A stretch of 64,000 nt of DNA from Pseudomonadota bacterium (GCA_027487795.1 JAIYCX010000039.1:355811-419810), one strand, 5' to 3'; counted from the first letter of the stretch, positions 7,216 to 51,294 are shown. The notes: generated by a model from the sequence alone, not told the origin. A program made the numbers and translations.

Positions 7216-7363
7216 TATTTTTAGATAATTTAAAATTATAATTCGTTTTACCTTATTGCGAATATTTTGCAATAGAAAATTTGAAGTTTACTAGTAGAAT
7301 TTAAATGTTATATCTAATAAAAGAATTCTTTATAATGTTTTTAATAAGTTGGAGTAGAATCTA

Positions 7364-13334: not shown

Positions 13335-13341
13335 AAAATAT

Positions 13342-13602
13342 ATGGAAAATCTTAGTATTCATATTACCGAAGCGATTAAAATACTTTTAATAGGACTTGG
13401 TATTCCACTAGTACTTTCAGTTTGTTTAGGTTTTTTAACTTCCTTACTTCAAGCAGCTACTCAACTTCAAGATCAAATTTTTTCATTTTTCCCTAAAGTA
13501 GTCTTATTAGCACTTTTAATAATACTCGGTGGAGAATTATTTTTAAATTTATTGGTTGAGAATCTTCAACAATTACTTATCAATATAAGGTATGTAAATT
13601 AG
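13342..13602 (+). CDS. sctS: Type III secretion export apparatus protein SctS (FliQ/YscS family)
   Basis: 87 aa, two TM helices, conserved LxxxQAATQLQDQ motif. Start taken at MENLS after the sctR stop. Confidence 0.75.
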   Translation: MENLSIHITEAIKILLIGLGIPLVLSVCLGFLTSLLQAATQLQDQIFSFFPKVVLLALLIILGGELFLNLLVENLQQLLINIRYVN

Positions 13603-13612
13603 GAAATTTAAA

Positions 13613-14431: not shown

Positions 14432-14440
14432 GTTAGTCTT

Positions 14441-15256: not shown

Positions 15257-15281
15257 TTGTCACTTTTGTAAGGCCCTAAAA

Positions 15282-17162
15282 ATGAAAAATTTCCTGGATA
15301 TTTTTAAAGAAGAGACTTCTCTTCCAGGTCAGATTAGGTCTATCGCAGCCCAACTAGGGGTTTATTTTAAAGCTAGTCATTTGGTTATTAGTTTATCTGA
15401 TACAGCATTTCTTTCTGCAGTCTCTCCAGTAGAATGGGTCAAAGAAGGATCTATTATTAAAGAAGACATTTCTACTAATCTATTAAAAGAATTAAAACTA
15501 AGACGAATATCTGGTCTTACATATCCTGAACAAAATAGACAAAATTTTATATCAGGAAATAATATTAGTAATAATAATTTCGTACTGTTTGCATTTTCAA
15601 TATCTTCAGGAATACCTGAAATTGAAGTTGCTATAGTAAGAGACGAAGAGTTTACTAGATTAGAGCTTAATTATTTAAATCAAATTCTTTCAGAAATTGC
15701 TCCTTACATTTCTAAAAGTCGTAAAGATTTATTGGGAGAACTCAAACAACAAGAAAAACAATTAACTGCACTTTATAGATTATCTCATGAGTTATCAGCT
15801 TTCTTATCATTAGATGAAATTTATCAGAAAGCATTTGAGATAATGAAATCGGAACTTGGTATTGATAGATTTTGGTTAGGCCTATTAAATGAAACTGGAA
15901 CTCGTTTAATAGGGGCCTCTGCTTTTGGTTCTGGTTGGAAAAGAAAACTTATTGAAATTAACATAGATGTTAGTGGGGACAGACACCCAATTAGTAAAGT
16001 AATACAAACTAAAAGACCTATTATATTAAAAGAAACTGGCTCAATACTTAGAGGACTTGGCATTAAAAGATTTATTTTGAGAAATGAAATTGATTCCGTA
16101 GGTCTTGTTCCATTAGTTGCAGGTGGTCAAGTATTAGGTTTACTTGCTTTTGAAGGTGAAAGAGAAGGAGTTGTTATTTCTAATAAAAAACTTTCATTAC
16201 TTTATAATTTTGCAAGTGAATTAGCTTCCGTTCTATTAGCCAAGAAATTAGAAGAAAGAGTATTAGCTGGGGAAACAATGAGAGCAGCTGGTTTGTTAGC
16301 TTCAGGTATCGCTCATAATTTTAACAATGTACTTCAAGGAATTTTAGGTCAAGCTTCTTTAATAGAGCTTTATTCTGAAAAGCCAGAACAGGTTAAAAAA
16401 TCTAGTGCTATAATTTCGGAAGCTGCAACAAAGGGTGCGAGTCTTGTTAAGCAGTTACTTAGCTTCGCACATTTAGAAGAAGCTGTGCCTAATATACTTG
16501 ATGTAAATTTATTAATTGAAAGAAGTAAGGCGAGCTTTCAAAGAACCTTAAAAAACAAGCAGTATATCAAATATCAACTAGAATCTAATCTTCCAAAGGC
16601 ATATGTAGATTCGTCCCATTTAATTAGAATCATCCAGGTTTTACTTTCTAATGCTAGAGATGCAATGCCTGAAGATGGTAGAGTTGAAATATTGTCTGAT
16701 TATATTGTAGTCGATAAAAATTCACCTCATTATGAAGTACCATTTGGCAGATATGTTCGAATAGGTGTCAGAGATAACGGAATAGGAATGGATTTAGAAA
16801 CTAAGAAAAGATGTTTTGAACCATTTTTTACAACTAAAAATACGGATCCAAGTACAGGCTTAAGTTTATCTGGTGGCGGAATGGGCTTGTCAGCTGCTTT
16901 TGCATTAGCTAGAAAGAACGGAGGTCGATTAGTAGTCGACAGTAGAAAAGGTCACGGCAGTTTGTTTACTCTTTATATTCCTGAAGAATCTGCTTTACAA
17001 AATAAAGTAGCTACAAATAAAGTAAGTCCAGATAAAGTTACCTCAAATAAATCAATTCAGGAAAAAGTCGAAGTAATTCAAACTGAAAATAAAATTGATA
17101 GCACTATTCAAATTGAAAACTTAGAATCAGCTAGTAATATTAAAAATATTAAACATGAATAA
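15282..17162 (+). CDS. Cytoplasmic sensor histidine kinase with GAF-like N-terminal domains (HisKA + HATPase_c)
   Basis: H-box LASGIAHNFNNVLQGILG. N-box LLSNARDAM. G-boxes VRDNGIGMD and GLSLSGGGMGLS. No TM segments. No response regulator adjacent. Confidence 0.8.
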   Translation: MKNFLDIFKEETSLPGQIRSIAAQLGVYFKASHLVISLSDTAFLSAVSPVEWVKEGSIIKEDISTNLLKELKLRRISGLTYPEQNRQNFISGNNISNNNFVLFAFSISSGIPEIEVAIVRDEEFTRLELNYLNQILSEIAPYISKSRKDLLGELKQQEKQLTALYRLSHELSAFLSLDEIYQKAFEIMKSELGIDRFWLGLLNETGTRLIGASAFGSGWKRKLIEINIDVSGDRHPISKVIQTKRPIILKETGSILRGLGIKRFILRNEIDSVGLVPLVAGGQVLGLLAFEGEREGVVISNKKLSLLYNFASELASVLLAKKLEERVLAGETMRAAGLLASGIAHNFNNVLQGILGQASLIELYSEKPEQVKKSSAIISEAATKGASLVKQLLSFAHLEEAVPNILDVNLLIERSKASFQRTLKNKQYIKYQLESNLPKAYVDSSHLIRIIQVLLSNARDAMPEDGRVEILSDYIVVDKNSPHYEVPFGRYVRIGVRDNGIGMDLETKKRCFEPFFTTKNTDPSTGLSLSGGGMGLSAAFALARKNGGRLVVDSRKGHGSLFTLYIPEESALQNKVATNKVSPDKVTSNKSIQEKVEVIQTENKIDSTIQIENLESASNIKNIKHE

Positions 17163-17433
17163 AAAAAATAATACTAATACGGCAGTTTCACTTAGTTACG
17201 ATCCACTAGATATGAATGCCCCAACAGTTTCTGCTATCGGTAGTGGTAAATTAGCTGAAGAAATGAAAAAAATAGCTTTTAAATACAATGTACCTATAAA
17301 AAAATCTTCAAATCTCGCTAATAAGCTTTCTAAAATACAAGTCTCCGAGGAAATTCCAGCTAGTTTATATGATGAAGTTGCTAAAGTGATTTTAAGCACT
17401 AAAAGACCCTTAAAAATAACTAAAAATAAATAG
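17155..17433 (+). CDS. Stand-alone SctU/FlhB C-terminal cytoplasmic domain protein (begins after the NPTH position; PTH motif absent)
   Basis: AVSLSYDPLDMNAPTVSAIGSGKLAEEMKKIAFKYNVPIKKSSNLANKLSKIQVSEEIPASLYDEVAKVI aligns with the FlhB-CC consensus AVALKYDEKKMxAPKVVAKGxG...NVPI...LARxLY...IPxELYxAVAEVL. The ATG overlaps the kinase stop codon (ATGAATAA). Confidence 0.7.
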   Translation: MNKKNNTNTAVSLSYDPLDMNAPTVSAIGSGKLAEEMKKIAFKYNVPIKKSSNLANKLSKIQVSEEIPASLYDEVAKVILSTKRPLKITKNK

Positions 17434-25957: not shown

Positions 25958-28900
25958 ATGGGGGAATTTAGTAATAAAAATGGGCAGGTTATAGCTCCTT
26001 CCTCTGACATTGAGGTAGGGAAAGACACGCCCTTAACTCTCCCTAGTGCGCCAGATAACAACCAAGATCAAAGTCAAAAAGACTCACTTAGCTTTCCCAA
26101 ATTAGACCCAAATGTCAAACTTAATACAAAATCAGAAAAACTCTTAGAAGAGCTTGCGATCTCCTTAGGCAATGCTAAATTCGACCGTGGCTTTAACATG
26201 ACCTTAGGCCAAGCCACTCACGATAATAATAACTACTCATCTCGACTACAAGTAGCAAATCAACAGATCTCAGATTTAGAACTAAAGATAAAATTTGAAC
26301 TAATAAAAAGTAACACTGCTCCCGAAGAACGAAAAGCCCAATTTGATAAGGTACAAAAATTTGCCGCTACGCGTGAGCATGAAGGACTGAATCAATTCCA
26401 AGCAGCAAAAACTGAGTACCAAAGAAGAACAGTTCAAGAAGCTGAAAAAGCAAGAAGAGAAGGAGGAGCAAGTTACGCACTAGGGGAGGTATTAACAAAA
26501 GCCACAAAATCAGCCTCTAGTCTTATTCCAACAACTAAAGAATCTGTAGAAATATTAAGCAGTGCAATATTCTCAGGCGGGGAAGGAATAGAAAAAGTAA
26601 GACTTAAAAACCTCTCACAAAGAGGAGAGTCCGTTCTTGGAACAACAGAAGAGTTTGCTAAAGGAAGTAATTCATCATTTAGCAATGCAGTCGCCCTAAT
26701 TGGAGTAGGCCTAGCCCCACTAGAGAAGGTATCAGGGATGACCCTAAACCCAGCTCTAGAGAGTGTAGACATTGGCCTTAGAGCCTCAAGAGTTGCAAGT
26801 TATAATACATTTTCGGGTAAGGATGCTCAGATTAATTACAGTGACTATAAAGAGCTAGAAGATAGAGAAGGTCTACTAAAAGCAGCGAAGCTTACTATGG
26901 ACGGTGCAAAGATAGCACTAGGAGCAGCAGCTCTTGGACCTAGCTCTTTGTCTCAATTAAGTCAGCCCATGTTAGTCTCGGGAGGGATGGGGTATGCCGG
27001 TGCCTTATCAGATGAGCTACTATCAAAAGAAGGTTTTAAATTAGGACGCTTTTTAGAGCATGGTTTTACTGGGACAGCAGATAGTTTTCTGTTCATGGGT
27101 GGGATTACGGGAATTGGGCATATAGCAGAGAAGACTGGAGCACTACATAAGATGTCATCTGTAAAGACATTCTTAAGTCTTGAGAATGGCGTTCAGAAGG
27201 AGAAGAAACTAGAGGCTATTCATAAAAGCTTTAAGGGACTAGAGATTACAAATGATGAGGCAAGGTTTGTAAGTAATCTAGTGGGTGAGATGAAAATGGG
27301 GCTAAGTGGGAAAATAGACCTGATTGATTCTCTACCAGATGTACAAAAAAGTCTGAATATTTTTTTAGAGAAGGTAGGAGATTTAAGCGCGCTAGAGATC
27401 TATGAGAAGCTTAAAAAGGATCCAGAGTATAGAAGGATGTTGGCTGGGGCAGTACTTAAGGTTGGAGTATCAGGGTTTGATGCTTTTGATGTTAAGAGCG
27501 GGACTAAGGGGATGGAGAGTCTGGAACAAACAGGAAGGATGGAAGATGGGAAGGAATTAGGGAAGTTTGTATCTTCTAAGAGTGGGAACTTAGAGAGTAA
27601 TGGGGACTTAGATTTTAGAAAAAATGGTGAGAGTATTTCAATTACCAATAGAGGAGAAGTTCCTATAGAAGTTCTTGCAGTTAATGGTAACGAATACAAA
27701 GGGTACTTTACACATACTAGAGATTTCTTTTATTTATTAGATAGAGAAGATCTTTCTTTAGCATACGGGGATATCTTAACATCAAGACAAGAAGTCGATC
27801 CAAACGGGACAGAGCATGTTGAATCATTTGTCGATAAAAATACAAAGCTAATTTTTTCTTATAAACAAAATAAAGAAAATTTATTACAAGAGAAGAAATG
27901 GAGAAGTTCTTTATTAGCACATGAGAATGAAAATAGGTCTGATATACTAGCTGGTAGAGCAGTTGATGAGAGGCGCTCATTTGAAACTCAGTTTCGATTT
28001 TTGGATAAGAATATAGATCAGGTTACTTTAAATAAAAGAATAAATGGTATCTTAGAGAGTAGTTATCTGGGGGCGGAAGGCTTGAGTTTGGCGGCAAGTA
28101 AAAAAGATAATATCGAATCAACTATCAATTTTCCTGAATTAGAATATATTTTAATTAATCTACAAGATCTAGTCAAAGAAGATAATTTTGAAGAAGGTGC
28201 TATTGAAAAACTGGACGATCTAATAACTCCTGGGAGTAGCAAACTAGTTGCACAGGGAATACTTACCTTAATAAGAAACTCTTCAAATCAATTATCTATT
28301 AAGATTTTAGACAACTTAGAGTTAATTTGCGCATATTTGATCTCATGTGATAACAACCAGATATCACGACCTATCTCTGGTATCATAGTATATGAAATCT
28401 TGCCGACGCTCTGTCAGGATACAAATGTTTCTCCATATATAAGATTAAAAGCAAAGACTATTCAAGAGAGACTAGTGTGCGAATCCTACTCATCATCTTT
28501 TGATCCTCGCTCAGTAAATAACGAAATAGGCGGCAAAGCTATATATGAAGATTCACCATTCTTTCCTGAAAGAGTTACTCTAAAAGATATCGCTAGAATT
28601 CGCAAATTAGCCAAGGATACTATATTTATCTGTAGAGAAGACGGCACTCCTGTTGCATTTAGTTATAGTTATGAAAACATTAATTCTGGAGACCCTAACT
28701 TATTGCAGCCTAGGCTATTAAAATCACTGAGAGATGAATTAAAACAGATAGAGCAAGGGGAACTTTCAAATCATATTTTACCTTGGGTAGCAATGGATCT
28801 TTATAGACATGAAGTATTATCTGGATTTTCTGAAGATTCTATAGAAGAATTTATGAACAGGATTATGCCTTCATCAATACCAAAAGAGATGATTACAGAG

Positions 28901-30487
28901 CTAGAGAAGGAATTATTTTATAAAAATATATATTTGCATAGGAGTATATATTCAAAATTAGTAATGATATTAGAAGAATTAGAAGATTCAAAAAAAGTCT
29001 TAACAGATGAAAGCAATGAAGCACCACTCGATAGCCAAAGTAATACCCAAGGTAGTATCGTAAATCCTTATTACTTCGATCCTAGTAAATATAATGAGCG
29101 AGAAAATCTTAAGGCACTGTATTTTAATGAAATGGATAATGAAAAGCTTAAACTAGTAAGACGTGAATTTGCAAATATTTTTCACGAAGAAAACTTTAAC
29201 GATGACCCGCTATATGACTTACTATCTTTAAATGAAGTTTATATATATTCCGATGATATGTACAATGCTCGTAATATTTGGGGAAATTACCTACGTAATG
29301 GACAAGAATCAAGCTTAAGCAAATTTAGGGCAGCTTTAAGAGAACGCTTAGATCACTTAATTTCATTAACAAACCAAACAAGAAGTACTTTCAATATACT
29401 AATGGATCTAGAACAAGAACGTTCGGAAGTATTCCCATTTAAAACTGAACATATTGAAAATCTATACTCCTTATTTCAAGAAGTACATCAAGGACCATTA
29501 AGATCTCATATTGAAGCTGAATTTGATATCGATCTTTCAGAAATAACTTTCAGATCACAGTTATATTTTCTTCAATTTTTACAAACTAGAGATACTGAAG
29601 GATTTATTGCATTTAAAAATGCTTTAAATAAATATCCTAATCAGAAATATAAAATTATAGAAGCCTTTGTTGCTAATGCAGAAAAGGCAACATATGCGAA
29701 ATATTTAATAGCTTTACCAAATAATTTACCAGAAACAATAGTTTCAAAAATCTTAGATAAATATCTCGAAATAATAGAATCCGCACAAGGGCTAGAAGAA
29801 CCACAAATACAAAAAGCCATCCGCTCAGCAAATCACTTTTTACATGCATATTCTATTAAAGCTAGATCTTCGGATAATCCAGAAAAAGTTATACTAAACC
29901 TAAACAAGCTCCATCATGAAATTCTAGCACTAGGAGTCCTAATAAGAGACTTAAGACGCACAGGTGCAATTAGTAATATTACTGATTTGCAAGGTCTTCA
30001 ATTTTCTTCCACATGCTCAAAAGATATTACAGATGATATTCGAAATGAAATAGCTGAACTATATCGCAGTAACTGGGAAAGTGATGCCTCATACAGTACA
30101 GAACATCGTGAAAAAGTTTTAGCAGCTCATGACAGGGCTATGAAGAATCCTGATACAAAGATCTACTCTTTTGAAACTAGCTCAGAAGTTCTAGCTTTTA
30201 TCAGAGTTGATTATCTTCCAGATGGCACAATTCACATGGGGGGATTGAATCAACGTCCAGAATTAGACCTTTCCTCTATAGGTATAACCTTACTCGAAGA
30301 AGTTATAAAACTAGAAAATCTTACTTCTGATATATTTATTGAAGTTACTAAAAAGAAAACTGAATTAATAGTTCAATATGAAAAGCTTGGATTTGTTATA
30401 GAAGCAGACAAAGTTATTATAAATTGGGAAGGAACAGGTGCGGATTTAGTAGTAATGCGCTTGCCTAGAGGTTCAATTATAAAGTAA
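25958..30487 (+). CDS. Very large (1509 aa) protein with C-terminal GNAT-type acetyltransferase domain; candidate secreted effector/toxin
   Basis: Long uninterrupted ORF with host-like AT-rich codon usage. No signal peptide. Ser/Asn/Gln-rich N-terminus. C-terminal GNAT motifs (...IHMGGLNQRPELDLSSIGITLLEEVI... and ...QYEKLGFVIE). Confidence 0.7.
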   Translation: MGEFSNKNGQVIAPSSDIEVGKDTPLTLPSAPDNNQDQSQKDSLSFPKLDPNVKLNTKSEKLLEELAISLGNAKFDRGFNMTLGQATHDNNNYSSRLQVANQQISDLELKIKFELIKSNTAPEERKAQFDKVQKFAATREHEGLNQFQAAKTEYQRRTVQEAEKARREGGASYALGEVLTKATKSASSLIPTTKESVEILSSAIFSGGEGIEKVRLKNLSQRGESVLGTTEEFAKGSNSSFSNAVALIGVGLAPLEKVSGMTLNPALESVDIGLRASRVASYNTFSGKDAQINYSDYKELEDREGLLKAAKLTMDGAKIALGAAALGPSSLSQLSQPMLVSGGMGYAGALSDELLSKEGFKLGRFLEHGFTGTADSFLFMGGITGIGHIAEKTGALHKMSSVKTFLSLENGVQKEKKLEAIHKSFKGLEITNDEARFVSNLVGEMKMGLSGKIDLIDSLPDVQKSLNIFLEKVGDLSALEIYEKLKKDPEYRRMLAGAVLKVGVSGFDAFDVKSGTKGMESLEQTGRMEDGKELGKFVSSKSGNLESNGDLDFRKNGESISITNRGEVPIEVLAVNGNEYKGYFTHTRDFFYLLDREDLSLAYGDILTSRQEVDPNGTEHVESFVDKNTKLIFSYKQNKENLLQEKKWRSSLLAHENENRSDILAGRAVDERRSFETQFRFLDKNIDQVTLNKRINGILESSYLGAEGLSLAASKKDNIESTINFPELEYILINLQDLVKEDNFEEGAIEKLDDLITPGSSKLVAQGILTLIRNSSNQLSIKILDNLELICAYLISCDNNQISRPISGIIVYEILPTLCQDTNVSPYIRLKAKTIQERLVCESYSSSFDPRSVNNEIGGKAIYEDSPFFPERVTLKDIARIRKLAKDTIFICREDGTPVAFSYSYENINSGDPNLLQPRLLKSLRDELKQIEQGELSNHILPWVAMDLYRHEVLSGFSEDSIEEFMNRIMPSSIPKEMITELEKELFYKNIYLHRSIYSKLVMILEELEDSKKVLTDESNEAPLDSQSNTQGSIVNPYYFDPSKYNERENLKALYFNEMDNEKLKLVRREFANIFHEENFNDDPLYDLLSLNEVYIYSDDMYNARNIWGNYLRNGQESSLSKFRAALRERLDHLISLTNQTRSTFNILMDLEQERSEVFPFKTEHIENLYSLFQEVHQGPLRSHIEAEFDIDLSEITFRSQLYFLQFLQTRDTEGFIAFKNALNKYPNQKYKIIEAFVANAEKATYAKYLIALPNNLPETIVSKILDKYLEIIESAQGLEEPQIQKAIRSANHFLHAYSIKARSSDNPEKVILNLNKLHHEILALGVLIRDLRRTGAISNITDLQGLQFSSTCSKDITDDIRNEIAELYRSNWESDASYSTEHREKVLAAHDRAMKNPDTKIYSFETSSEVLAFIRVDYLPDGTIHMGGLNQRPELDLSSIGITLLEEVIKLENLTSDIFIEVTKKKTELIVQYEKLGFVIEADKVIINWEGTGADLVVMRLPRGSIIK

Positions 30488-30489
30488 TG

Positions 30490-31764
30490 CTATAAATCAG
30501 TAATTGTATAAGAATCAGCAGATAATTGCTCTAATACCTTCTCTGATATCATTCCTTCTCTTACTGTAGAATATGGAATTAGAATTTTTGTATTTTTTTT
30601 GGTTTTTGTAATATTTGCAATACCTTCTCTCAGAATATTTATCTCATCATTATAGTTTAAAACTTTTCTATCTATAAGAAAGTTATGAATAAGTGGAACT
30701 TTTTTATCTAGTCTAAATTCTAGTAGAGCTAATATCTTATCATTCCAAATCGCTAGATGGCAGATACTACTATCTGGGATGATAAATTGATCAAGCATTT
30801 TATGTCTACCTTCTGTTACAAGTTTTTCAACAAGGTATTCTCTAGCTCTAAAAAACATATCACTAGTTTCACATTTACGAAGCATAAAACCAGTATTCTT
30901 AATATCAGGCATCGGTGCTTTATTTATTAATAAGAGTAAACTAGTAAGTTCTTCAACTTCATCTGTGGTAAAATTCTCAGCCGCATTAGCTAGTTTATCC
31001 GAAAATATTTCTATTAAATTATTGTAAATACTTAACCCATTATTAGTTAAAGAATAAATCTTCTGTCGTTTATCTCCCTTTGGTGAAAATTTACTAATAA
31101 TATTATTATTTTCAAAATCACTTAGGTATCTAGAAATCTTACTTGTAGAAAAAGGCAGGTTATCATCTAAATCTTTAAATCCTATCCCAGATTTGCTTTT
31201 TGCTATATCATTTAAAATTTGAAACTGAGTTAAGTTAAACTCATTTCCCATATAACTTTCACCTAACATACCTAAGGCAATTACTGCTCTTCTCTGTTCT
31301 GGTGCAAACAATCCTTCCCCTTCGCGAAGTTTTTCAGGGGGTGCTTTTAAGCCATTATTTAGTTTACGAAACAACTCAACCATCCGTAAATGTTCCCTTG
31401 GGGATAGTAAGCTGCAGCCTAGTTGTGAAATACGACTATTTAATTGATCTGCTTCAGTTAGAAGTTTTGTTCCATATTCAGTGAAAACTAAACGACGACC
31501 ACGTTTGTCTTCAAATGTTGTTTCCATACTAAGACAACCCATGCTTACTAGCTGATTTAAAAGTCTTGAAATCTTACTTTTTGAAATTCCTAGTAAATTA
31601 ACTAAGTCACTAGCAGATCTATTTGTATCGTATGCGAGGTGCGATAAAATTATGGATTCAACTGGAGACAAATCAGAAGGCAATAACATCCTAATAGCCC
31701 TCATTTTGCGCTGAGTAAGCAGGATTGAATCATGCAATTGAGTATATATATTTAGTGTAGCCAT
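30490..31764 (-). CDS. Transcriptional regulator with two MarR-type winged-HTH domains and an extra C-terminal domain
   Basis: Two repeats of the wHTH pattern (SDLVNLLGISKSKISRLLNQLVSMGC...RGRRL and FKDLDDNLPFSTSKISRYLSDFENNNII...DKRQKIYSLT). Confidence 0.6.
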   Translation of the reverse strand: MATLNIYTQLHDSILLTQRKMRAIRMLLPSDLSPVESIILSHLAYDTNRSASDLVNLLGISKSKISRLLNQLVSMGCLSMETTFEDKRGRRLVFTEYGTKLLTEADQLNSRISQLGCSLLSPREHLRMVELFRKLNNGLKAPPEKLREGEGLFAPEQRRAVIALGMLGESYMGNEFNLTQFQILNDIAKSKSGIGFKDLDDNLPFSTSKISRYLSDFENNNIISKFSPKGDKRQKIYSLTNNGLSIYNNLIEIFSDKLANAAENFTTDEVEELTSLLLLINKAPMPDIKNTGFMLRKCETSDMFFRAREYLVEKLVTEGRHKMLDQFIIPDSSICHLAIWNDKILALLEFRLDKKVPLIHNFLIDRKVLNYNDEINILREGIANITKTKKNTKILIPYSTVREGMISEKVLEQLSADSYTITDL

Positions 31765-31765
31765 G

Positions 31766-31960
31766 TTCGTATTTTATGATGATAGTTTTATAATAATAGT
31801 TTCATTCCGATATGCAATTATAAACTGGAAGTACTTAGTAATTATAAATCTATAAATAATATAGCTATTTAGACATTCTAAAACTCACATCAATAATCAT
31901 GATCAAATCAGTATAATACTACTAGATCGTCGGTGCGCGATGGGAATTGAAGCGCTGATA
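31766..31960 (+). repeat. Promoter-like repeat A, copy 1 (roughly 195 bp, 55-bp core identical to the copy at 33480-33534)
   Basis: taatagtttcattcc...aatcagtataatactactagatcgtcggtgcgcgatgggaattgaagcgctgata. The core contains an extended -10-like cagTATAAT. Confidence 0.6.
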
Positions 31961-32230
31961 TCTATGGCTCTTCCTAATGTTGAGTTCTTTATATTATTAT
32001 TTGGGTATAAGATTTTTCTGCTGTTCTCTCTTCGGCTGCATTAGAGATGGTTTAATCCCTTGCTCTGGCCGTCTCTTATTCAATTATAAATTTACTTTTC
32101 ATAATTAATTTCAAACAAAGTTAATAATGAAGAGAGAAAGAATAAATTAAGGTTATTGTTTTAAGTGGTTTTAATAAGGTTAGTTATTTACTTGAGCATA
32201 TCTAATCCATATTTTTTATTACGATAAGAT

Positions 32231-32312
32231 ATTCCGTTGAAAATAATATTTGCATTTCATAGAGTTTGAAATATTTTAATTCTATGAAATGCGATTTGCA
32301 TTATCCGGAATG
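32231..32312. promoter_or_regulatory. Nested imperfect palindrome (candidate operator or large hairpin) in the leader of the exonuclease cassette
   Basis: ATTCCG...GCATTTCATAG-(19 nt)-CTATGAAATGC...CGGAAT. Direct repeat CCGTTGAAA at both flanks. Confidence 0.25.
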
Positions 32313-32372
32313 TCCTACCGTTGAAAGGATACGCTATTGAGGGCATTTAATTTGCCCTAGAAAGAAAGTATT

Positions 32373-32891
32373 ATGAAAATTTTTTCAATCGACGCCGAAG
32401 TCGATGGACTGTACGGACCATCGTTCGCCATTGCTGTCACCGTCCGCCAGGACGGTGTAGAAATTGCGAGCTTCCAAGGAAGGATACCTGATGACGGAAT
32501 CAAGGATGGGTGGGTGAGGGAGAAAGTTCTCCCAGCCCTGAGTGACATGAAAGTCACGCATCAGACCACCGAGGCCCTCGAGGAGGCCTTCTGGGCCTTC
32601 TGGAGTGATCAAAAGGAAGGTTCCACCGTGATTGCCCACTGTGGCAGTCCGGTTGAGTCAGGACTCTTTCGGCGATGCGTCGAGAGAAATTTCGCCGAAC
32701 GACAATGGAACGGACCATTCCCACTTCATGAAGTGGGAACACTGCTCCTCGCAGTTGGGGCGGACCCCGGCAGCGTTGACAACTACAACAAAAGGCATGG
32801 CCTAGTCGTTCCCTTTGCAGGGGTGGCGCACCACCCCATGTACGATGCGGCTGCTGCCGCGGTTGCTTGGGAACACGCTATCGCTAAGTAA
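32373..32891 (+). CDS. GC-rich small DEDDh-type (DnaQ/Orn-like) 3'-5' exonuclease, probably horizontally acquired
   Basis: Exo I motif FSIDAEVDGLYG and Exo III motif HHPMYDAAAAA. GC far above the surrounding DNA. Confidence 0.6.
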   Translation: MKIFSIDAEVDGLYGPSFAIAVTVRQDGVEIASFQGRIPDDGIKDGWVREKVLPALSDMKVTHQTTEALEEAFWAFWSDQKEGSTVIAHCGSPVESGLFRRCVERNFAERQWNGPFPLHEVGTLLLAVGADPGSVDNYNKRHGLVVPFAGVAHHPMYDAAAAAVAWEHAIAK

Positions 32892-32940
32892 AGTAAAAAG
32901 CTCTGCTTAGAATAAAAAACTAAGCAGGAGTTAAAATAAC

Positions 32941-32992
32941 TAAACCCACTCAGCCTTGATTAAAGTTAATCTAATTCGCTGAGTGGGTTTTT
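32941..32992 (+). terminator. Rho-independent terminator after the exonuclease gene
   Basis: AAACCCACUCAGC-(loop)-GCUGAGUGGGUUUUU. A second smaller hairpin GCUCUGCUUAG...CUAAGCAGGAG lies at 32900-32930. Confidence 0.5.
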
Positions 32993-33023
32993 CAAAAGGT
33001 ATATAATTATTCTTTCTCTTTCT

Positions 33024-33137
33024 TTATTATCTTTACCTTGACTCCACCCCATTTTGCGATTTCCCATCGCGAGCTTATTTCTTAGCCTAACATAATACGA
33101 AAGTTGTATGTATCTTAGTTTCATCAAAGTGGGGTGG
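33024..33137. repeat. MITE-like 114-bp element with 23-bp terminal inverted repeats, copy 1
   Basis: TACCTTGACTCCACCCCATTTTG ... CAAAGTGGGGTGGGCTGAAGGTA. Second copy at 34693-34806. Confidence 0.5.
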
Positions 33138-33159
33138 GCTGAAGGTAGTATCAAAAAAT

Positions 33160-33355
33160 ATTAAGCACTATATATCCTAATCAGTTCGCTTTCACTATCC
33201 AACCAATTATACTTATCATTAATAGCATCAAGCCCATTTTTACCTAGGCTGATTCTTTTATCTATGTAGGAATAAGAATTCTCTATACACCTTGCCGCAT
33301 ATTCCAGATTACCGGATTCAAAAACGTATCTACAGTTTGTTTTCAGTTCATTATC
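33160..33355 (-). pseudogene. Diverged in-frame remnant (64 codons plus stop) of the C-terminus of the GT4 glycosyltransferase gene at 34820-35998
   Basis: Reverse-complement translation ...NCRYVFESGNLEYAARCIENSYSYIDKRISLGKNGLDAINDKYNWLDSESELIRIYSA* versus the intact gene ...NCGYVFESGSPESAARYIEKAFLSKEERDLLGQNGLKAINDKYNWSISEKELIKIYSA*. Same position relative to the MITE-like element. Confidence 0.55.
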
Positions 33356-33534
33356 ATAATTTTAGAATAATAGTTTCATTCCAGTATGTAAACATATACT
33401 GAAAATACTCAACGATAATAAATCTCTCACTAATATAATAACTTAGATATCCTAAAACTCAAATCAATAATTCCGATTAAATCAGTATAATACTACTAGA
33501 TCGTCGGTGCGCGATGGGAATTGAAGCGCTGATA
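33340..33534 (+). repeat. Promoter-like repeat A, copy 2
   Basis: Same architecture as 31766-31960. Identical 55-bp core at 33480-33534 containing the -10-like TATAAT. Confidence 0.6.
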
Positions 33535-33970
33535 ATCAAAAGGCTGAGAAAGACGGGTAGAGAGTTTGATAAGGTTAAGGCTGCAAGTACTAAGTTAAGA
33601 AAGCAGACCTTACTAAATGTTAAAATTCTAGAGAACAAGCAGTGTTAAAAAACACAGCAGGGGTTCTTTAGAACAAAGGTTTTGTTAAACGTTTGCAAAC
33701 TCAAAAAACATCTTTCTTCTCTATAAAGAAGAATCAATAAATTCTTTTTTATAGAGGATTAAAAATCCTGAGTTTGTGTTCTTTATATTATTATTTGGGT
33801 AGAAGAAAGCATAATTGCTCTTGATAAACTGAGTCACTAAAAGTTTTATAAACTAAGAGACTATAAAAAAACAAAGTGAAAAGTTTAACAAGAGCGGTGA
33901 TTTTTGGTTTTGGTACTCTGCTTTTGAAGAGTACCGAGGTTTTATCGCTCGTAAGAGCGAAGGAGAAAAA

Positions 33971-34561
33971 ATGAGAAAGAAAAAAGGAACCCTGCTTGCT
34001 TATCGCAAGCAGGGTGGTTTTATAACAGAGATTCAATACGGAGAGCACGGTGCTCTTTTTATCGAAAAAGTTGAATGCAGAACTGTTTCAGTTCTGCATT
34101 ATGGTTGGTATCAAGATGGCGGTTATAGGCCGTCTGTCAGATATGATGTCTCACGGACAGCTATGATGTGCCACCATCGGTGGCTGGAAACGGGGTACAA
34201 TTGGACCCCAAAACCAGTGGCCTTTGCAAGGGAGCATTGCGAGGATGTCGAATTATCAATTGCTACCGGCGATGGATATTTCGATTTGCAGAATAGAAAA
34301 GTCTCCGGCTGGTGGCTTTCCGTAAAGGAAGCTACCTTGGAAAGGAACTCTTTTAGAAGTTCCCGCTTTGAGCGGGATTACTTCAAAAGAAATTACCCAA
34401 GAGGTAATTGCCATAATTGCGGATTCGACTTGCAAGAACACTTCCAAAAAATCCGCCAAGATGGCGGATATGTCTACCGACTGGAGGAGGGTTCTTCAAC
34501 CTTCCTGTTTGATTGGGAGGCACATGACCGACCAAGGGTAATGAATACCCTTCTCCCTTAA
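33971..34561 (+). CDS. GC-rich hypothetical protein with Cys/His clusters (possible zinc-binding), probably horizontally acquired
   Basis: 196-aa ORF with about 50% GC. CHHRW, CEDVEL and CHNCGF clusters. Strong AGGAG Shine-Dalgarno. Hairpin-rich 5' leader. Confidence 0.5.
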   Translation: MRKKKGTLLAYRKQGGFITEIQYGEHGALFIEKVECRTVSVLHYGWYQDGGYRPSVRYDVSRTAMMCHHRWLETGYNWTPKPVAFAREHCEDVELSIATGDGYFDLQNRKVSGWWLSVKEATLERNSFRSSRFERDYFKRNYPRGNCHNCGFDLQEHFQKIRQDGGYVYRLEEGSSTFLFDWEAHDRPRVMNTLLP

Positions 34562-34596
34562 AGTTCTCCTAGAAGGGATATAGGCTGAACTGTTTA

Positions 34597-34640
34597 TGAG
34601 CAGTGACAGCCAACGAATGTTGTATGTCACTGCTCTTTTA
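34597..34640 (+). terminator. Rho-independent terminator after the GC-rich hypothetical gene
   Basis: GAGCAGUGACA-(loop)-UGUCACUGCUC followed by UUUUAAAAAU. Confidence 0.5.
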
Positions 34641-34692
34641 AAAATATTTAGGATATGGAAGTCTACTATTCTTTCACTATCTCGATATTTAC

Positions 34693-34806
34693 TACCTTGA
34701 CTCCACCCCATTTTGCGATTTCCCATCGCGAGCAAATTTCTCGGCCTAACATATGACCATAGTCAAATGTATCTTAGCTTCATCAAAGTGGGGTGGACTG
34801 AAGGTA
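34693..34806. repeat. MITE-like 114-bp element with 23-bp terminal inverted repeats, copy 2 (immediately downstream of the GT4 stop)
   Basis: TACCTTGACTCCACCCCATTTTG ... CAAAGTGGGGTGGACTGAAGGTA. Confidence 0.5.
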
Positions 34807-34819
34807 GTATTCAGATATA

Positions 34820-35998
34820 TTAAGCACTATAAATCTTAATCAATTCTTTCTCACTAATCGACCAATTATATTTATCATTAATAGCTTTAAGCCCATTTTG
34901 GCCAAGTAAATCTCTTTCTTCTTTTGATAGAAATGCTTTTTCTATATACCTTGCCGCTGATTCCGGACTACCCGATTCAAAAACGTATCCACAGTTTGTC
35001 TCAAGTACAATTCTTTTTAAAGGTTCTGCATCTGAAACTAACACTGGCTTAGCAAGTGCCATATATTGAAAAAGTTTATTTGGTATGGTGGTATTTATGA
35101 ATTCATTATTTAAATGAGGAACTAAGCATAGATCTGAGTTATATATTAACGTGGGCAACTCACTAAACGAAACCCAACCAGAAAAACTTATACAATTTTC
35201 TAATTTAAGTTTTGTAACAAGTGCTTGCAGTACGCTAAGATAATTTCCTGAACCTACAATTACTAATTTTATAGAATTATTTCCGCGATTACTTAGAATA
35301 TGAATAGCATTGATTATATCTTCTAATCCGCGCTCTATCGTAATCACTCCAGCATATAAAAGTACAAACTCTTTTTGCTTTTCTTTCTTTAACAAAGTAT
35401 TGTCTGTCATAAACTGCTCTAAATCCACAGTATTACTAACAACAAATATTTTATCTGCTGCAATTCCTTGCTTAATTAATCTATCTGCTTGTTCCTCAAC
35501 AACCAAGATAATTTTATCAAATACCTTAACAGAAAACCATTCAACTAATTTTGCTATTCGATAATTTTTAAAAACTCTCGTTTTCCAATCAACCTTACCC
35601 CAGCCCTTTAGTGCTTCTGGATAATTTTCCCACATGTCTAAAACTATAGGGATTCTTAAAATTCTTCCTACAAACCATACTGCTGGAGCTAGTGCGATAT
35701 CTACAACTTGAAGTGCTTGAATTTTATTTTCTATACAAAAAGATACTAATTGAAAAATCCAAAGTGGATTAAAGAAAATTGGAAATTTTAGAATTTTATT
35801 TACTGTTCTACTTTTGAAAGTTGGTATTAGTCTTCTTACATTAATACCATTGTATATTTCATTTGATAGTTTGAAATCACCATAGTTATTACAAAATACG
35901 AAAATTTCATGCCCTGCTGATATAAGGCTTTTTGCTTCTTTTTCTATTCTTTCAGCTGGAGGGAACTCTCCTCCTTGGTATACAATACATATTTTCAT
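34820..35998 (-). CDS. Family 4 (GT-B fold, GT1-type) glycosyltransferase
   Basis: C-terminal EGFGL-type region (…AKPVLVSDAEPLKRIVLETNCGYVFESGSPES…). 392 aa. Confidence 0.75.
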   Translation of the reverse strand: MKICIVYQGGEFPPAERIEKEAKSLISAGHEIFVFCNNYGDFKLSNEIYNGINVRRLIPTFKSRTVNKILKFPIFFNPLWIFQLVSFCIENKIQALQVVDIALAPAVWFVGRILRIPIVLDMWENYPEALKGWGKVDWKTRVFKNYRIAKLVEWFSVKVFDKIILVVEEQADRLIKQGIAADKIFVVSNTVDLEQFMTDNTLLKKEKQKEFVLLYAGVITIERGLEDIINAIHILSNRGNNSIKLVIVGSGNYLSVLQALVTKLKLENCISFSGWVSFSELPTLIYNSDLCLVPHLNNEFINTTIPNKLFQYMALAKPVLVSDAEPLKRIVLETNCGYVFESGSPESAARYIEKAFLSKEERDLLGQNGLKAINDKYNWSISEKELIKIYSA

Positions 35999-36056
35999 TA
36001 ATTTGGATTTCCCATTTAAATCGTGCTATTTGCTTATAAAATATTTAATTAATGAA

Positions 36057-37223
36057 ATGAAGAGACTATTATATATCTCACCTGGACCAGTTCCGCCAAG
36101 TTTAGATAAGAGTTTAAATAAATTCATGGCGTTGTCTGAAATTCTGACTGGTGACGTGCTTGAGCCTATTTGGTGGAATAGCGATAAGGTTGGAATTGAA
36201 AAATTAGGTAAAGATAATTATCCAAATTATCAAATAGGTAATTTTACTTATCGACTATTTCCTCTAGATCGATACCCCAAAGTCTTAAAGAAATTTGTTA
36301 GAATATTTTTCTATATTTTAAAAGCTAGAAAGCTTATAAAAGAAAATGGCTCATATGATTATATTATGACGTATGGAACCAATTCGACTGGTCTTGCAGC
36401 GTGCATAATAAAATTATTATACGGCGGTAAACTTATAGTTGAAATCCCAGGTGTCCCAGAGGATGGTTCTTTATATGATAAAAAAGAAAGAACGATATTT
36501 GATGTAAAAAATCAAATATTTAATAATCTAATGCTATACCTTGTCGGAATTTGGGCAGATATTTTCAAACTACTCTATAAAAATCAATTACATCGTTATC
36601 CAGTTCTCAAAGATAAGTTATCAGCTATATTTCATGATTTCGTTCCTACTCAAAAAATAGAGATGGAACCAATAGCAGATATGGAATATACTGTACTGAT
36701 AGGATATCCGTGGTATCGAAAAGGTGCTGACTTATTAATAAAAGCATTTCATCAGTTTCTATTAGAATATCCTGAAACAGATTTTAAAATAAAAATCATC
36801 GGTTGGATTACAGATCCTGAGTACCTAATAGAATGCAGTAAAGGAGATAAACGAATAGAAATAATCCCTCCAGCCCCGCAATCTGAAATATTTAAGTATA
36901 TAGCAAACTCTAGTTTTTTAACGATCCCTTCAAGAAGTGAAGCAATGGGTCGAGTAGTATTAGAAGCTATGGCTGCATCTAAGGCAGTTTTAGGTAGTAA
37001 CGTAAATGGGATACCAACTTATGTTACTAATAATGAAACTGGTCTGCTTTTTAAGTCAGATGATGTAAATAGTTTGTATGAAAACTTAAAGCTGTTGATC
37101 TTAGATAAAGAACTAAGGCAAAAATTGGGTCAGAATGCTTATAAAGTCTTGAACAAAGAACATAATGAAAAAGCATATGTTAAGAAATTCAAACAAATGC
37201 TTTATTTATTAGATAATAAATAA
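36057..37223 (+). CDS. Family 4 glycosyltransferase (second GT4 of the cluster)
   Basis: EAMGRVVLEAMAASKAVLGSNVNGIPTYVTNNETGLLF motif. Start taken at MKRLLYISPGP; the ORF-track start at 36003 is also possible. Confidence 0.7.
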   Translation: MKRLLYISPGPVPPSLDKSLNKFMALSEILTGDVLEPIWWNSDKVGIEKLGKDNYPNYQIGNFTYRLFPLDRYPKVLKKFVRIFFYILKARKLIKENGSYDYIMTYGTNSTGLAACIIKLLYGGKLIVEIPGVPEDGSLYDKKERTIFDVKNQIFNNLMLYLVGIWADIFKLLYKNQLHRYPVLKDKLSAIFHDFVPTQKIEMEPIADMEYTVLIGYPWYRKGADLLIKAFHQFLLEYPETDFKIKIIGWITDPEYLIECSKGDKRIEIIPPAPQSEIFKYIANSSFLTIPSRSEAMGRVVLEAMAASKAVLGSNVNGIPTYVTNNETGLLFKSDDVNSLYENLKLLILDKELRQKLGQNAYKVLNKEHNEKAYVKKFKQMLYLLDNK

Positions 37224-37224
37224 A

Positions 37225-38712
37225 ATGCCATTCGAAGAAACTTCTCATTTAAGAAAAGCAATTACTGGTGCAAGCTGGTTGGGTATCTCTAAACTTGTTA
37301 GCCAATTAGTTTCATGGACATTTACAATATTAGTGACTAGAATACTCTCTTCTAGAGATTATGGACTGATGGAGATGGCAACAGTTTTCACAGGCTACTT
37401 AGCTTTCTTTGTAGAGTTTGGTATGGGGGCAGCACTTGTTAATAGAACTAACGTATCAAAAGAAGAAAATTCATCAGTTTTTTGGATTCTATTTTTTTGG
37501 GGTAGCATTTTATTCTTACTGGCCTATTTACTAGGCCCAGTTACAGCAAATTTTTATCAAGAACCAGAACTTACTAAGCTTACTCAATTCGCAGGGATAC
37601 TATTTTTACTTTCTTCTTTAATCATTGTTCCAAGAACAATTCTTCAACGTGAATTAAGGTTTAAAGAGCTTGGTTTTATAGAGGCATTATGCACGATTAG
37701 CTCGTGTTTAGTAATGTATTACCTAGCGACAAATAATTTTGGATATTGGACTTTAATATATGGTTATGTTTTTAGAGAAGTCCTTAGCACAGCATGTATT
37801 GCAATAAAATCTAAGTTTTATCCTTTATTACATTTTGATATCAGAGATATAAAACCTTTGATAAGTTTTGGTCTACCGGTCGTACTATCAAGTTCGCTTT
37901 ACTACATATATACTAAATCAGATCGTTTTTTTGGGGGCCAAACGTTAGGCCCTGTTGAATTAGGCTTTTATGCAGTTTCTTTGCAGCTTGCTGCAATCCC
38001 TGTGGAAAAAATTGGCTCTGTTGTGCAAAGTGTTCTTTATCCACTTTTATCAAAAGTAAAGGACGATAAAAAAATATTTTCTGAATATTATTTATCTTTT
38101 ATCTCTTTACTATCAATAATTACAGTTCCCTTGTTTGTAGGTGGTTTTGTCTTGGCAGAGCCTTTAATTTTTAATTTGCTTGGTGAAAAATGGCTAAGTT
38201 CAGTTATTCCCTTTAAATTACTTTTAATCGGGCAGTTAATAATGATCTTATCTGCGCCTAATGCCTTAATAAACAATGCTAGGGGAGAGCCAAAAGTTAA
38301 TTTTTATTTTAATTGTATTTTATGCCCCAGTATCATGTTAGGGTTTTATCTTTCCGCTAGCATGAAAGAACTAAATTATTTAGCACTACCTTGGATTGTT
38401 ATTTATCCATTGTTTCAGTTATTTTTCACGAAATATACTCTAAATAAAGTAAGTTTGAGTTTATTAGATTTATTAAAAATGATCTCACCTTCATTACTCT
38501 CTTCTTTTAACATGGCATTAGTTTTAGAAGCTTTGATTTTCTTGTGTTATAAGAATAATTATAATTTACACACAATTACTGAGCTATTAACACTTAGTAT
38601 TATAGGCGCATTAGTTTATGTGGGTTATTTTTTAATTTTTGACTACAGTTCTATACGTAAGATTATTGCTCTATTTAAAGGAGAGAAGTTTGAACCTCTA
38701 CAAAACAACTAA
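37225..38712 (+). CDS. Polysaccharide/O-antigen flippase (Wzx, MOP superfamily)
   Basis: 495 aa. About 12-14 predicted TM helices. N-terminal pattern typical of polysaccharide biosynthesis protein family flippases. Confidence 0.65.
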   Translation: MPFEETSHLRKAITGASWLGISKLVSQLVSWTFTILVTRILSSRDYGLMEMATVFTGYLAFFVEFGMGAALVNRTNVSKEENSSVFWILFFWGSILFLLAYLLGPVTANFYQEPELTKLTQFAGILFLLSSLIIVPRTILQRELRFKELGFIEALCTISSCLVMYYLATNNFGYWTLIYGYVFREVLSTACIAIKSKFYPLLHFDIRDIKPLISFGLPVVLSSSLYYIYTKSDRFFGGQTLGPVELGFYAVSLQLAAIPVEKIGSVVQSVLYPLLSKVKDDKKIFSEYYLSFISLLSIITVPLFVGGFVLAEPLIFNLLGEKWLSSVIPFKLLLIGQLIMILSAPNALINNARGEPKVNFYFNCILCPSIMLGFYLSASMKELNYLALPWIVIYPLFQLFFTKYTLNKVSLSLLDLLKMISPSLLSSFNMALVLEALIFLCYKNNYNLHTITELLTLSIIGALVYVGYFLIFDYSSIRKIIALFKGEKFEPLQNN

Positions 38713-40456
38713 ATATAATATAGCTTTAATTTTAGTAGCTACTATATTTATTTTTACTACTTTAATTTTCGTATCAGGAATTAATCCAATAACAACCAGA
38801 GGTGAGGGTAGGGAGGGACTTGTTGTTCAGGCTATGGAGAGACAAGAAAATCTTATATTACCTCTTAGAAATGGAGTAGAGATTCCTTCAAAGCCACCAC
38901 TATATCATTGGATATCATATGGATATGATAAGTTAACTAATCTTGATACTATTAAAAATATTGATGTTACATCTATACGAGCACCTTCAGTTATCTCAGC
39001 TAGTTTAATCTTTTTAATTCTCTCAGTCTTTTTATTAAAAAGAGCGCCAAGCATTATTGCATTCTTAACCGTCTCAATACTTTTTTCCTCTTTGGAGTTT
39101 ATCAGGTATTCTACCCAGGGCAGAGTGGATATGGTTTTTACGCTGTTTTTGGCTATTAGTATGATCGGTCTTTATAAGTATAATGAAGAAAAATCTAAAC
39201 TTACATTTATACTTACAACAATTTGTTTATCTTTATCTGCATTAGGTAAGGGTCCTTTTGGTATAATTATACCTCTTTTAATACTTGGTATTTTTATTCT
39301 CTTTGATTTTTCAAAAGAGAATTATTTTGAAAGAATAAAAAAGCTTTTTCCGTTTATACCAATATTTCTATTCTCTATTTTACTCGCATCTATTTGGTAT
39401 TATCTAGCTTATAATATTGGCGGTGAGGATTTTTTAAATACTCAGCTAGGTAAAGAAAACGTGTATAGAGTAGTTAAATCAGATACCATTGAAGTTGGCC
39501 ATAATAAGCCATTCTATTTTTCATTTATATATCTTTTATCAGCAATTCTACCTTGGGCACTTTTTCTACCTAGAATTATAAGCACTATTTTACAGTTAAA
39601 GATATTTAAGGTTATGTTAGCTAAGGATTCTTTATTTAGATTTGCTAGCATTTGGCTTCTTGTTTTTCTTTTTGCTGTCACAGTTAGTGTTAGTAAGAGA
39701 TCTGTCTACTTTCTTCCAGCTCTACCTGCTTTTGCTTATATTTTTGCTATACTTATTAGCAATTCATCTAAAGCTAATCTAAGTAAAATTATACTATCAT
39801 TTGAAAAAGTAATATTTAATATTATTTATATTCTTTCAATTACTTTATTTGTACTTTTAACTATTCTTAGTATTTTATACTTCTCCGGTGTTAGTACTTC
39901 TTCTGTAGTTTCTTTGCTGTCCTTGAATGGGATACAAATTTCTCCGAAAGTTATTTTAATACTTAGCTACATTGATGTATCCCTAATTGGGATCGCAATA
40001 TGTCTTTTATTTTTACTTTTTATTATCAATACTTTTTCAAAGGCTAAAAATAGTTTCTTCAATGAAAGAATTGAAACTGGTGCTTTATACTTCTCAATAT
40101 ATTTTTGTTTTCTTTTTTTAGTTGCTCAGATTAGCATAGCACCTTTGGTATTTGAACAAGAAAATCCTGAAAGTTTTTCTAAGGTTGTAAATCAAGAAGT
40201 TACTAGAGACTCGAAAATATATCAGTACGGCGGTGAGTTTTATGCACTTAGTTTTTATCTAAATAGAGATGTTACGGTAATAAATGATTTTTCTGAGATC
40301 GTTTCAACCGGTCTTTCTACTTATGTTTTAATATCTGAAAAAGATATTAAAAATCTTAAATTACTTGAAAAACACGAGATTATTCAAGTCGCAATAAGTA
40401 ATAGAAACCTTGCTAATAGAGATGGAAAAGTTTTATTAGTGAAGATTATAACTTAA
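38690..40456 (+). CDS. GT-C fold glycosyltransferase, ArnT/PMT-like (GT39/GT83 family)
   Basis: Polytopic membrane protein with the first-loop signature ...RGEGREGLVVQAMERQ...LRNGVEIPSKPPLYHW. TTG start at 38690 preceded by AGGAGA. Confidence 0.6.
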   Translation: MNLYKTTKYNIALILVATIFIFTTLIFVSGINPITTRGEGREGLVVQAMERQENLILPLRNGVEIPSKPPLYHWISYGYDKLTNLDTIKNIDVTSIRAPSVISASLIFLILSVFLLKRAPSIIAFLTVSILFSSLEFIRYSTQGRVDMVFTLFLAISMIGLYKYNEEKSKLTFILTTICLSLSALGKGPFGIIIPLLILGIFILFDFSKENYFERIKKLFPFIPIFLFSILLASIWYYLAYNIGGEDFLNTQLGKENVYRVVKSDTIEVGHNKPFYFSFIYLLSAILPWALFLPRIISTILQLKIFKVMLAKDSLFRFASIWLLVFLFAVTVSVSKRSVYFLPALPAFAYIFAILISNSSKANLSKIILSFEKVIFNIIYILSITLFVLLTILSILYFSGVSTSSVVSLLSLNGIQISPKVILILSYIDVSLIGIAICLLFLLFIINTFSKAKNSFFNERIETGALYFSIYFCFLFLVAQISIAPLVFEQENPESFSKVVNQEVTRDSKIYQYGGEFYALSFYLNRDVTVINDFSEIVSTGLSTYVLISEKDIKNLKLLEKHEIIQVAISNRNLANRDGKVLLVKIIT

Positions 40457-51270: not shown

Positions 51271-51294
51271 CCCCCTCGGGACTCTAGATTTATA

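Follow-up and report, generated by a model that had tools for sequence, protein, structure and literature searches.

What does the giant open reading frame (ORF) at 25958-30487 encode, and where does its product act? It lies in a 64,000-nucleotide stretch of DNA from a Pseudomonadota bacterium (GCA_027487795.1, JAIYCX010000039.1:355811-419810), hereafter the window. The initial annotation, prepared from this DNA alone, regarded the 1509-residue product as a candidate type III effector or toxin with a GNAT acetyltransferase at its C-terminus. Our analysis leads us to lean, by a modest preference, towards a cytoplasmic multidomain GNAT acyltransferase paired with a dedicated winged-helix regulator. 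The features central to this reading are the following.

25958..30487, plus strand: giant ORF, composed of an orphan N-terminal region and a helical+GNAT module (ORF analysis)
25958..29404, plus strand: orphan region, residues 1-1149, with no domain, homologue or usable model found
29405..29974, plus strand: conserved all-helical domain, residues ~1150-1339 (EFDIDLSEITFRSQLYFLQFL ... FVANAE), from the family alignment A1 and AlphaFold2
30002..30484, plus strand: predicted GNAT acyltransferase domain, residues ~1349-1509, from AlphaFold2, Foldseek and the family profile
30490..31764, minus strand: partner regulator, 424 residues, tandem MarR, convergent with the giant ORF across a 2-nt gap

The giant ORF, which starts with ATG and encodes 1509 amino acids as first described, is a real gene. 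At the base composition of the window (~32% G+C), the expected stop frequency is 0.074 per codon, and the probability that 1509 codons remain open by chance is therefore ~1e-51. No 19-residue Kyte-Doolittle window of the protein attains 1.5 (maximum 1.39), indicating that it has neither an N-terminal signal-like stretch nor a transmembrane helix, and no internal repeats were found by self-BLASTP or TRF. The initial annotation was thus correct in describing a protein that lacks a signal peptide, transmembrane segment and repeats, and also in pointing to a Ser/Asn/Gln/Pro-rich start, as these residues make up 40% of positions 1-60 versus 21.7% of the entire protein.

The nature of the C-terminus becomes apparent through its relatives. 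A direct Pfam and NCBIfam scan of the whole protein gave no GNAT match. The last 196 residues reach 13 bits (E 0.13) on Pfam Acetyltransf_1, for which the cut-off is 20.7, and phmmer against the PDB returned a single weak match, 3c26, at E 0.0014. Eight of the nine top homologues scanned pass the Acetyltransf_1 threshold at their extreme C-terminus, and homologues at 22-31% identity score 21-31 bits against the same cut-off of 20.7. The profile of alignment A1, which joins residues 1150-1509 of the window protein with 19 family modules, matches solved GNAT structures, namely 3c26 (2e-8), PaiA (6e-8) and Ard1/Naa50 (1e-7). AlphaFold2 applied to A1 predicts a mixed alpha/beta GNAT fold for the second half of the module (residues 1349-1509), with a predicted local distance difference test score (pLDDT) of ~90. 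In a Foldseek comparison with the PDB, this model matched 273 chains at E<=1e-3, and all 50 of the 273 matches that were listed are GNAT-type acetyltransferases, with target-normalised TM-scores of 0.53-0.82. The C-terminal GNAT proposed in the initial annotation is therefore confirmed through a family bridge, consisting of homologues that pass Pfam, a profile that matches PDB structures, and the fold. Within this true GNAT fold, the two motifs pointed out there correspond to the strand 4/helix 3 region and to the motif-B helix. Profile recovery of these motifs, set beforehand as the check that could overturn the assignment, was achieved with the family as the bridge, the direct scan alone remaining sub-threshold.

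Residue conservation, measured against about 145 family members, is consistent with this assignment. Conserved positions retained in the window protein are F1414 (91% of the family), R1416 (82%), N1431 (92%), I1441-G1442 (65% and 87%), Y1474 (93%) and G1478-F1479 (93% and 89%). H1426, where 79% of the family have Y, is one of three deviating positions, the other two lying in the acetyl-CoA loop. Judged by profile and predicted fold, the C-terminus is a GNAT acyltransferase domain in which most of the highly conserved family residues are retained, and acyltransferase activity of the window protein is plausible.

The GNAT domain is the end of a larger conserved unit. An exhaustive HMMER search with residues 1115-1509 as the query recovered 521 proteins at E<=1e-3, counted as cluster representatives, and 126 at E<=1e-10. 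The typical match extends over ~340 residues, covers both the helical and the GNAT parts, and forms the C-terminus of an ~800-residue protein. Alignment A1 is collinear throughout, with 22-28% identity and conserved columns in common. The module, ~360 residues in all, consists of a helical domain of ~190 residues followed by the GNAT domain; AlphaFold2 predicts only helices in its first half (pLDDT ~60-87). The homology of the window protein extends across this whole module, and against the module profile the window ORF reaches 354.6 bits.

Typical family members have 800-1000 residues and are built of a conserved ~440-residue N-domain, the ~190-residue helical domain and the GNAT domain. Neither a Pfam family nor a solved relative could be found by sequence for the N-domain or the helical domain. 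A minority of members, of 1400-2300 residues, carry extra N-terminal extensions, which are mostly unconserved among the long members, the pair P0004/P0096 excepted. Of ten hits whose clusters were looked up, nine are singletons and one belongs to a cluster of two. Members occur in metagenome-assembled genomes (MAGs) that bear the labels Candidatus Saccharibacteria and Gammaproteobacteria, and neither the giant protein nor other members of its family turned up when plasmids and phages were searched by tblastn and viral contigs were scanned. A broad but not exhaustive keyword search of the literature returned no relevant description of such a helical+GNAT family. On this homology, we assign the window protein to an uncharacterised family, of which it is a divergent representative. 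GNAT acetyltransferases are common, and very few of the large multidomain ones have a known role. What is new here is an uncharacterised helical+GNAT module in at least several hundred proteins of 800-2300 residues, with a near-obligate winged-helix partner.

At one family locus (L015, 1-3749; GCA_020434415.1, JAGRAW010000033.1), a second giant gene, encoding 2301 residues without a Pfam match, lies directly upstream of the gene for P0096, a family member of 2217 residues.

The partner gene provides the second line of evidence. The initial annotation described a tandem-MarR regulator converging on the giant ORF, and the gene product does contain two complete MarR/SlyA-like units (residues 15-140 and 172-283); its C-terminal domain of ~140 residues matches nothing. 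Among the features that the initial annotation listed, this neighbour proved the most informative. The stop codons of the two genes are 2 nt apart. We retrieved 19 family loci (L001-L019) from genome and metagenome collections, 18 of which are informative in that they include DNA downstream. A winged-helix regulator gene is the immediate neighbour of the family gene, or is separated from it by one gene, in 17 of these 18 loci as well as in the window, as follows.

L001-L007, L009-L011 and L014 (11 loci): TrmB-like gene, ~255-330 residues, on the 3' side, convergent, abutting or overlapping the 3' end
L013 and L016: tandem-MarR gene, adjacent, convergent
L012, L015 and L017: tandem-MarR gene, adjacent, co-directional
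L019: tandem-MarR gene, one gene away
L018 (P0070): no partner; a second copy on the contig of the L016 pair, flanked by PemK and PIN genes
L008: uninformative, as the contig stops at the family gene

The tandem-MarR partners of six loci are full-length homologues of the window regulator. The closest, at L013, is 45% identical over 349 residues (E 2e-107), while those of L016, L012, L015, L017 and L019 are 27-33% identical (E 3e-32 to 3e-54). The geometry of the L013 pair resembles that of the window, being convergent with a 3-nt gap, and the L016 pair is convergent as well. A word-indexed homologue search with the window regulator returned only the regulator itself. Orthology between the window regulator and the TrmB-like partners was considered and rejected, since only the winged helix aligns (hhalign probability 12.7%). 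Five of the six long forms examined have a tandem-MarR partner, the sixth being the L018 exception, and so does the 5'-truncated P0017 (L012). In a neighbour-joining tree of the modules, the MarR-linked ones are roughly grouped with a bootstrap of 23/200, and this tree does not settle whether partner type tracks module phylogeny. The near-obligate coupling of the module to a dedicated winged-helix regulator, drawn from two unrelated regulator types, suggests a regulated enzyme that acts inside the bacterium.

Genes for surface polysaccharides neighbour the giant-GNAT/MarR pair both in the window and on the L016/L018 contig (SRR30597359_3479). The window has GT4/GT1 glycosyltransferases, a flippase and a PMT_2 gene at 34820-40456; the contig has GT2/GT4 glycosyltransferases, a Bac_transf gene, UDP-glucose dehydrogenase and an epimerase. 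The similar neighbourhood could reflect a shared variable hotspot or a coincidence.

The remaining part of the protein, upstream of the module, has a different character. It begins with a polar disordered segment (residues 1-60), followed by predicted long helices (~57-220) and by a Gly/Ala-rich, mildly hydrophobic segment (245-390, maximum 1.37). Pfam, NCBIfam and PADLOC gave nothing above threshold on the full protein or on four segments of it. A word-indexed homologue search with the giant protein returned the protein itself as the sole match in one run and only P0017 in another; the search missed the family, and it overlooked even a fragment having a 34-residue exact match with the query. 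Single-sequence AlphaFold2 of residues 1-1160 gave a pLDDT of 36 and is unusable.

Nor does this region resemble the N-domain of the family, which carries the motif I-A-x-D-A-x-A-x-x-D-x-x-x-L-P-R. The N-domain was not found in the window protein by hmmsearch (score -5.6) or hhalign (probability 0.1-0.3%), hhalign of the orphan region against family N-domains gave a probability of <0.5%, and all comparisons with long-form N-domains and with the P0004/P0096 extensions were non-significant. The segment LAKDTIFICREDGTPVAF at residues ~886-903 locally resembles the family motif and stands in a collinear position, without statistical support. The stretch that the window protein has in common with any family member is limited to residues ~1131-1509. 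P0003, a metagenomic fragment of 151 residues that is 68% identical, shows similarity by eye back to about residue 1070 and is the only sequence that overlaps the edge of the orphan region; this overlap indicates the same architecture in at least one related organism.

The N-terminal extensions of the long MarR-linked members, though unrelated in other respects, each contain a Gly/Ala-rich hydrophobic segment in which Kyte-Doolittle values reach up to 2.1 (P0023 residues 254-288, P0096 ~691, P0116 ~320, P0004 ~757). Residues 245-390 of the window protein form a weaker analogue. Such segments might allow the long members to associate with membranes.

Upstream of the two genes, a repeated palindromic sequence may connect the regulator to both. 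It is listed here together with a structured element in the same intergenic region.

25879..25891, unstranded: AAGTACTTAGTAA with palindromic core AAGTACTT, candidate operator, 67-79 nt upstream of the ATG of the giant ORF
31829..31841, unstranded: second copy of AAGTACTTAGTAA, candidate shared operator, 65-77 nt upstream of the regulator start codon
25562..25746, unstranded: GC-rich imperfect hairpin (~55% G+C, ~185 nt) between the Fe-ADH gene and the giant ORF

The 13-mer occurs exactly twice in the 64-kb window, even when one mismatch is allowed. The site is suggestive because both copies are promoter-proximal to the two genes at matching distances, and we infer that the tandem-MarR regulator may bind it. 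Like the MarR/SlyA-family repressors, the regulator has a palindromic candidate site upstream of its own gene, and each of its halves can be aligned from one end to the other with MarR, SlyA or MgrA structures. It differs from these repressors in that a single chain combines two protomers and continues into the ~140-residue C-terminal domain without relatives.

The anomalous GC-rich element that the initial annotation placed before the ORF is the hairpin at 25562-25746. This long inverted repeat, whose arms pair imperfectly, has fold z-scores of -4.6 and -5.3 and gave no Rfam match; a T-run comes after it on the plus strand. Its possible roles include those of terminator, small RNA and island/boundary element, and its membership of the module is putative. 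A small upstream ORF (25570-25827) has no Pfam match and coincides with the hairpin, and is therefore probably not a gene.

We propose the following mechanism. The tandem-MarR protein would be a single-chain pseudo-dimer of MarR type with an extra C-terminal domain, and would bind the AAGTACTT-containing palindromic site upstream of both genes. In this way both its own expression and that of the acetyltransferase would be under its control, with a ligand as the probable signal. The GNAT domain would use acyl-CoA as the donor to acylate an amine of a protein or small molecule, while the helical domain and the lineage-specific N-terminal region of 1150 residues could supply substrate choice, localisation or regulation. 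We infer each of these elements, that is, the binding of the 13-mer by the regulator, GNAT catalysis, the nature of the substrate and the action inside the bacterium. The coupling to a regulator offers a testable handle, through the ligand that is sensed and through the regulator, or a co-regulated substrate, as a target of the enzyme.

Comparison with known enzymes places the protein near, yet outside, established classes. The class I-beta (type III) bacterial GNATs combine a large N-terminal regulatory domain with a C-terminal GNAT domain (PMC6456759). The window protein resembles them in having a single C-terminal GNAT behind a much larger non-catalytic N-terminal part. However, the ACT, cAMP-binding and NADP-binding domains listed for that class (PMC6456759) were not detected in it, and its family adds the ~190-residue helical domain and the regulator partner. 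The lysine acetyltransferases Pat, YfiQ and PatZ belong to class I-alpha, defined by a nucleoside diphosphate (NDP)-forming acyl-CoA synthetase-like domain (PMC12184503, PMC6456759). In contrast, this domain is absent from the window protein (Pfam, NCBIfam) and from nine family members scanned. The nearest solved GNATs by profile are the protein N-alpha-acetyltransferases Ard1 and Naa50, and PaiA, which hints at a protein or polyamine as the substrate.

Several observations weigh against a regulated cytoplasmic enzyme. In the acetyl-CoA loop, the window protein has D1437 where 77% of the family carry R/Q/K, and L1438 where 63% carry G, so that its GNAT domain could be weakly active or inactive. 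No family member with a recorded substrate or activity is known. As the family N-domain is not detectable in the window protein, the biology of this protein may depart from that of the core family. The shared 13-mer is one isolated observation; at least two matches to it arose in 6 of 100 shuffled windows, and at L013 and L016, where the 13-mer is not conserved, equivalent shared sites are weak and absent, respectively. Finally, pairing with a regulator is compatible with export of the enzyme too, and the organism carries type III export-gate genes, which are located as follows.

12534-17433: sctR, S, T and U export-gate genes
ending at 18489: FHA/YscD-like gene

The changes in the acetyl-CoA loop raise the question of whether the domain is catalytic at all. 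The protein may be a large structural or regulatory one that has retained the GNAT fold solely for sensing acyl-CoA or for binding proteins. This would agree with the sub-threshold direct Pfam scores and with motif A (Q/R-x-x-G-x-G/A), which reads D-L-S-S-I-G here and thus opens non-canonically, with D-L in place of R/Q-G; the terminal I-G is retained, and the leading R/Q/K and G are changed. Near-invariant family residues are nevertheless kept, including Y1474 of motif B, N1431 and the I-G of the pyrophosphate loop. The GNAT pyrophosphate loop binds through backbone amides, so side-chain changes within it are often tolerated, and we regard a catalytically dead scaffold as improbable. An active enzyme might instead be toxic or defensive, with a variable sensor at its N-terminus and a winged-helix partner that neutralises it and represses transcription. 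Such a toxin-antitoxin-like or conflict module would account for the strict two-gene linkage despite two unrelated partner types and varying orientation, and for the highly variable N-terminal extensions of the long forms. The predominance of singleton clusters among the hits looked up, the extra C-terminal domain on both partner types, the paralogue P0070 (L018) between PemK and PIN genes, and the GC-rich, repeat-flanked, foreign-looking cassettes that adjoin the window pair also fit. The known GNAT toxins TacAT, AtaRT and KacAT are proteins of ~170 residues whose ribbon-helix-helix (RHH)/DUF1778 antitoxins are encoded upstream in one operon. The window pair is like them in that a GNAT enzyme is genetically coupled to a DNA-binding partner, but the partner is a winged-helix protein that is mostly convergent, and the GNAT proteins of the family, at 800-2300 residues (1509 in the window), are 5-10 times the size of the known toxins. 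TacT, AtaT and KacT, which acetylate tRNA, were not recognisable among the PDB matches listed, PADLOC gave only generic winged-helix matches for the pair and nothing for the 1509-residue protein, and no copies were found on plasmids, phages or viral contigs. We consider this explanation unlikely, though less so than a dead scaffold. About equally unlikely is a new, widespread two-component system in which the regulator is the direct partner of the enzyme, as its acetylation target or neutraliser, and the variable extensions sense or target; this type III-bearing, AT-rich bacterium would then have adapted one such module into an acetyltransferase that is secreted or directed to the membrane.

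The proposal of the initial annotation itself, a type III secreted effector, would make the polar N-terminus a secretion signal, let the large N-terminal region target a host structure, and have the GNAT domain acetylate a host protein. In line with it, sctR, S, T and U and an FHA/YscD-like protein are encoded in the genome; the first 60 residues are polar, S/N/Q/P-enriched and devoid of a hydrophobic stretch, which is compatible with a type III signal, although not specific; and the protein is big, with an orphan N-terminus and an enzymatic domain solely at the C-terminus. GNAT effectors of other secretion systems also exist, such as Legionella VipF (Lpg0103), a small tandem-GNAT effector translocated by the Dot/Icm (type IV) system (PMC10936415). 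Both are GNAT enzymes proposed or shown to be effectors of a host-associated bacterium; the window protein differs in that it has a single GNAT domain, is longer by 1350 residues outside that domain and is paired with a conserved regulator, and no sequence relationship between the two was seen. Proximity to the export gate had been offered in support, at a distance of 9 kb. The cluster is present, but the gap measures 7.5-8.5 kb, and the genes that fill it are all housekeeping (nadC, Cu-oxidase_4 of the laccase family, asd, truA, tRNA-Leu, secG, DUF445, HEAT-repeat and Fe-ADH). The immediate neighbours of the giant ORF are the Fe-ADH gene and the MarR regulator, with no functional linkage to type III genes and no adjacent chaperone-like gene, and no eukaryote-like domain was found by Pfam or NCBIfam. 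Moreover, the GNAT domain is not a free-standing warhead but the end of a conserved ~360-residue module common to hundreds of proteins, and that module is tied to cytoplasmic winged-helix regulators in nearly all informative loci. Relatives also occur in Saccharibacteria-labelled MAGs, and Saccharibacteria are not expected to possess a type III system. The enzymatic half of the effector/toxin claim thus stands, on the GNAT fold and its conserved residues, while the effector/toxin half finds no positive support, and we judge it doubtful, slightly more so than a conflict module. A large orphan protein with a C-terminal enzyme in a type III-bearing genome is not sufficient to call an effector. 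For this genome, regulator-operator and enzyme-partner experiments outrank translocation assays.

The type III cluster has features of its own. The sctU gene is split in two: fragment 1 (14441-15256, 271 residues) covers positions 2-256 of Bac_export_2 and terminates in ...VLVVSD, and fragment 2 (17155-17433, 92 residues) covers positions 257-332 and starts with MNKKNNTNTAVSLSYDP. The split point is presumably where the autocleavage motif (NPTH in YscU) would fall; NPTH is absent from both fragments. Between them lies a gene for a GAF-HisKA-HATPase histidine kinase of 626 residues (15282-17162). Just upstream of the sct genes, on the minus strand, are genes for a ZnuD-like TonB-dependent receptor (4957-7272) and a subtilisin-like protease of 937 residues (8739-11552); the receptor points to a Gram-negative (outer-membrane) organism.

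Beyond the regulator, the region 31764-34966 contains two strongly GC-rich ORFs, at 32373-32891 (172 residues) and 33971-34561 (196 residues), in a genome of 32% G+C. In the former, 100-nt windows reach up to 62% G+C, and the 172-residue product shows DEDD-exonuclease-like motifs by eye. Each ORF is preceded by a repeat of ~197 nt (31764-31960 and 33338-33534, 82% identical), the first copy of which begins exactly at the start codon of the regulator, and is followed by a repeat of ~300 nt (33008-33307 and 34667-34966, 79% identical). Pfam, PADLOC and Rfam gave no match on these elements, which look like foreign gene cassettes. Elsewhere in the window, a cobalamin riboswitch (RF00174, 56.2 bits) lies on the minus strand at 51290-51514, upstream of a minus-strand ORF of 633 residues (49369-51270).

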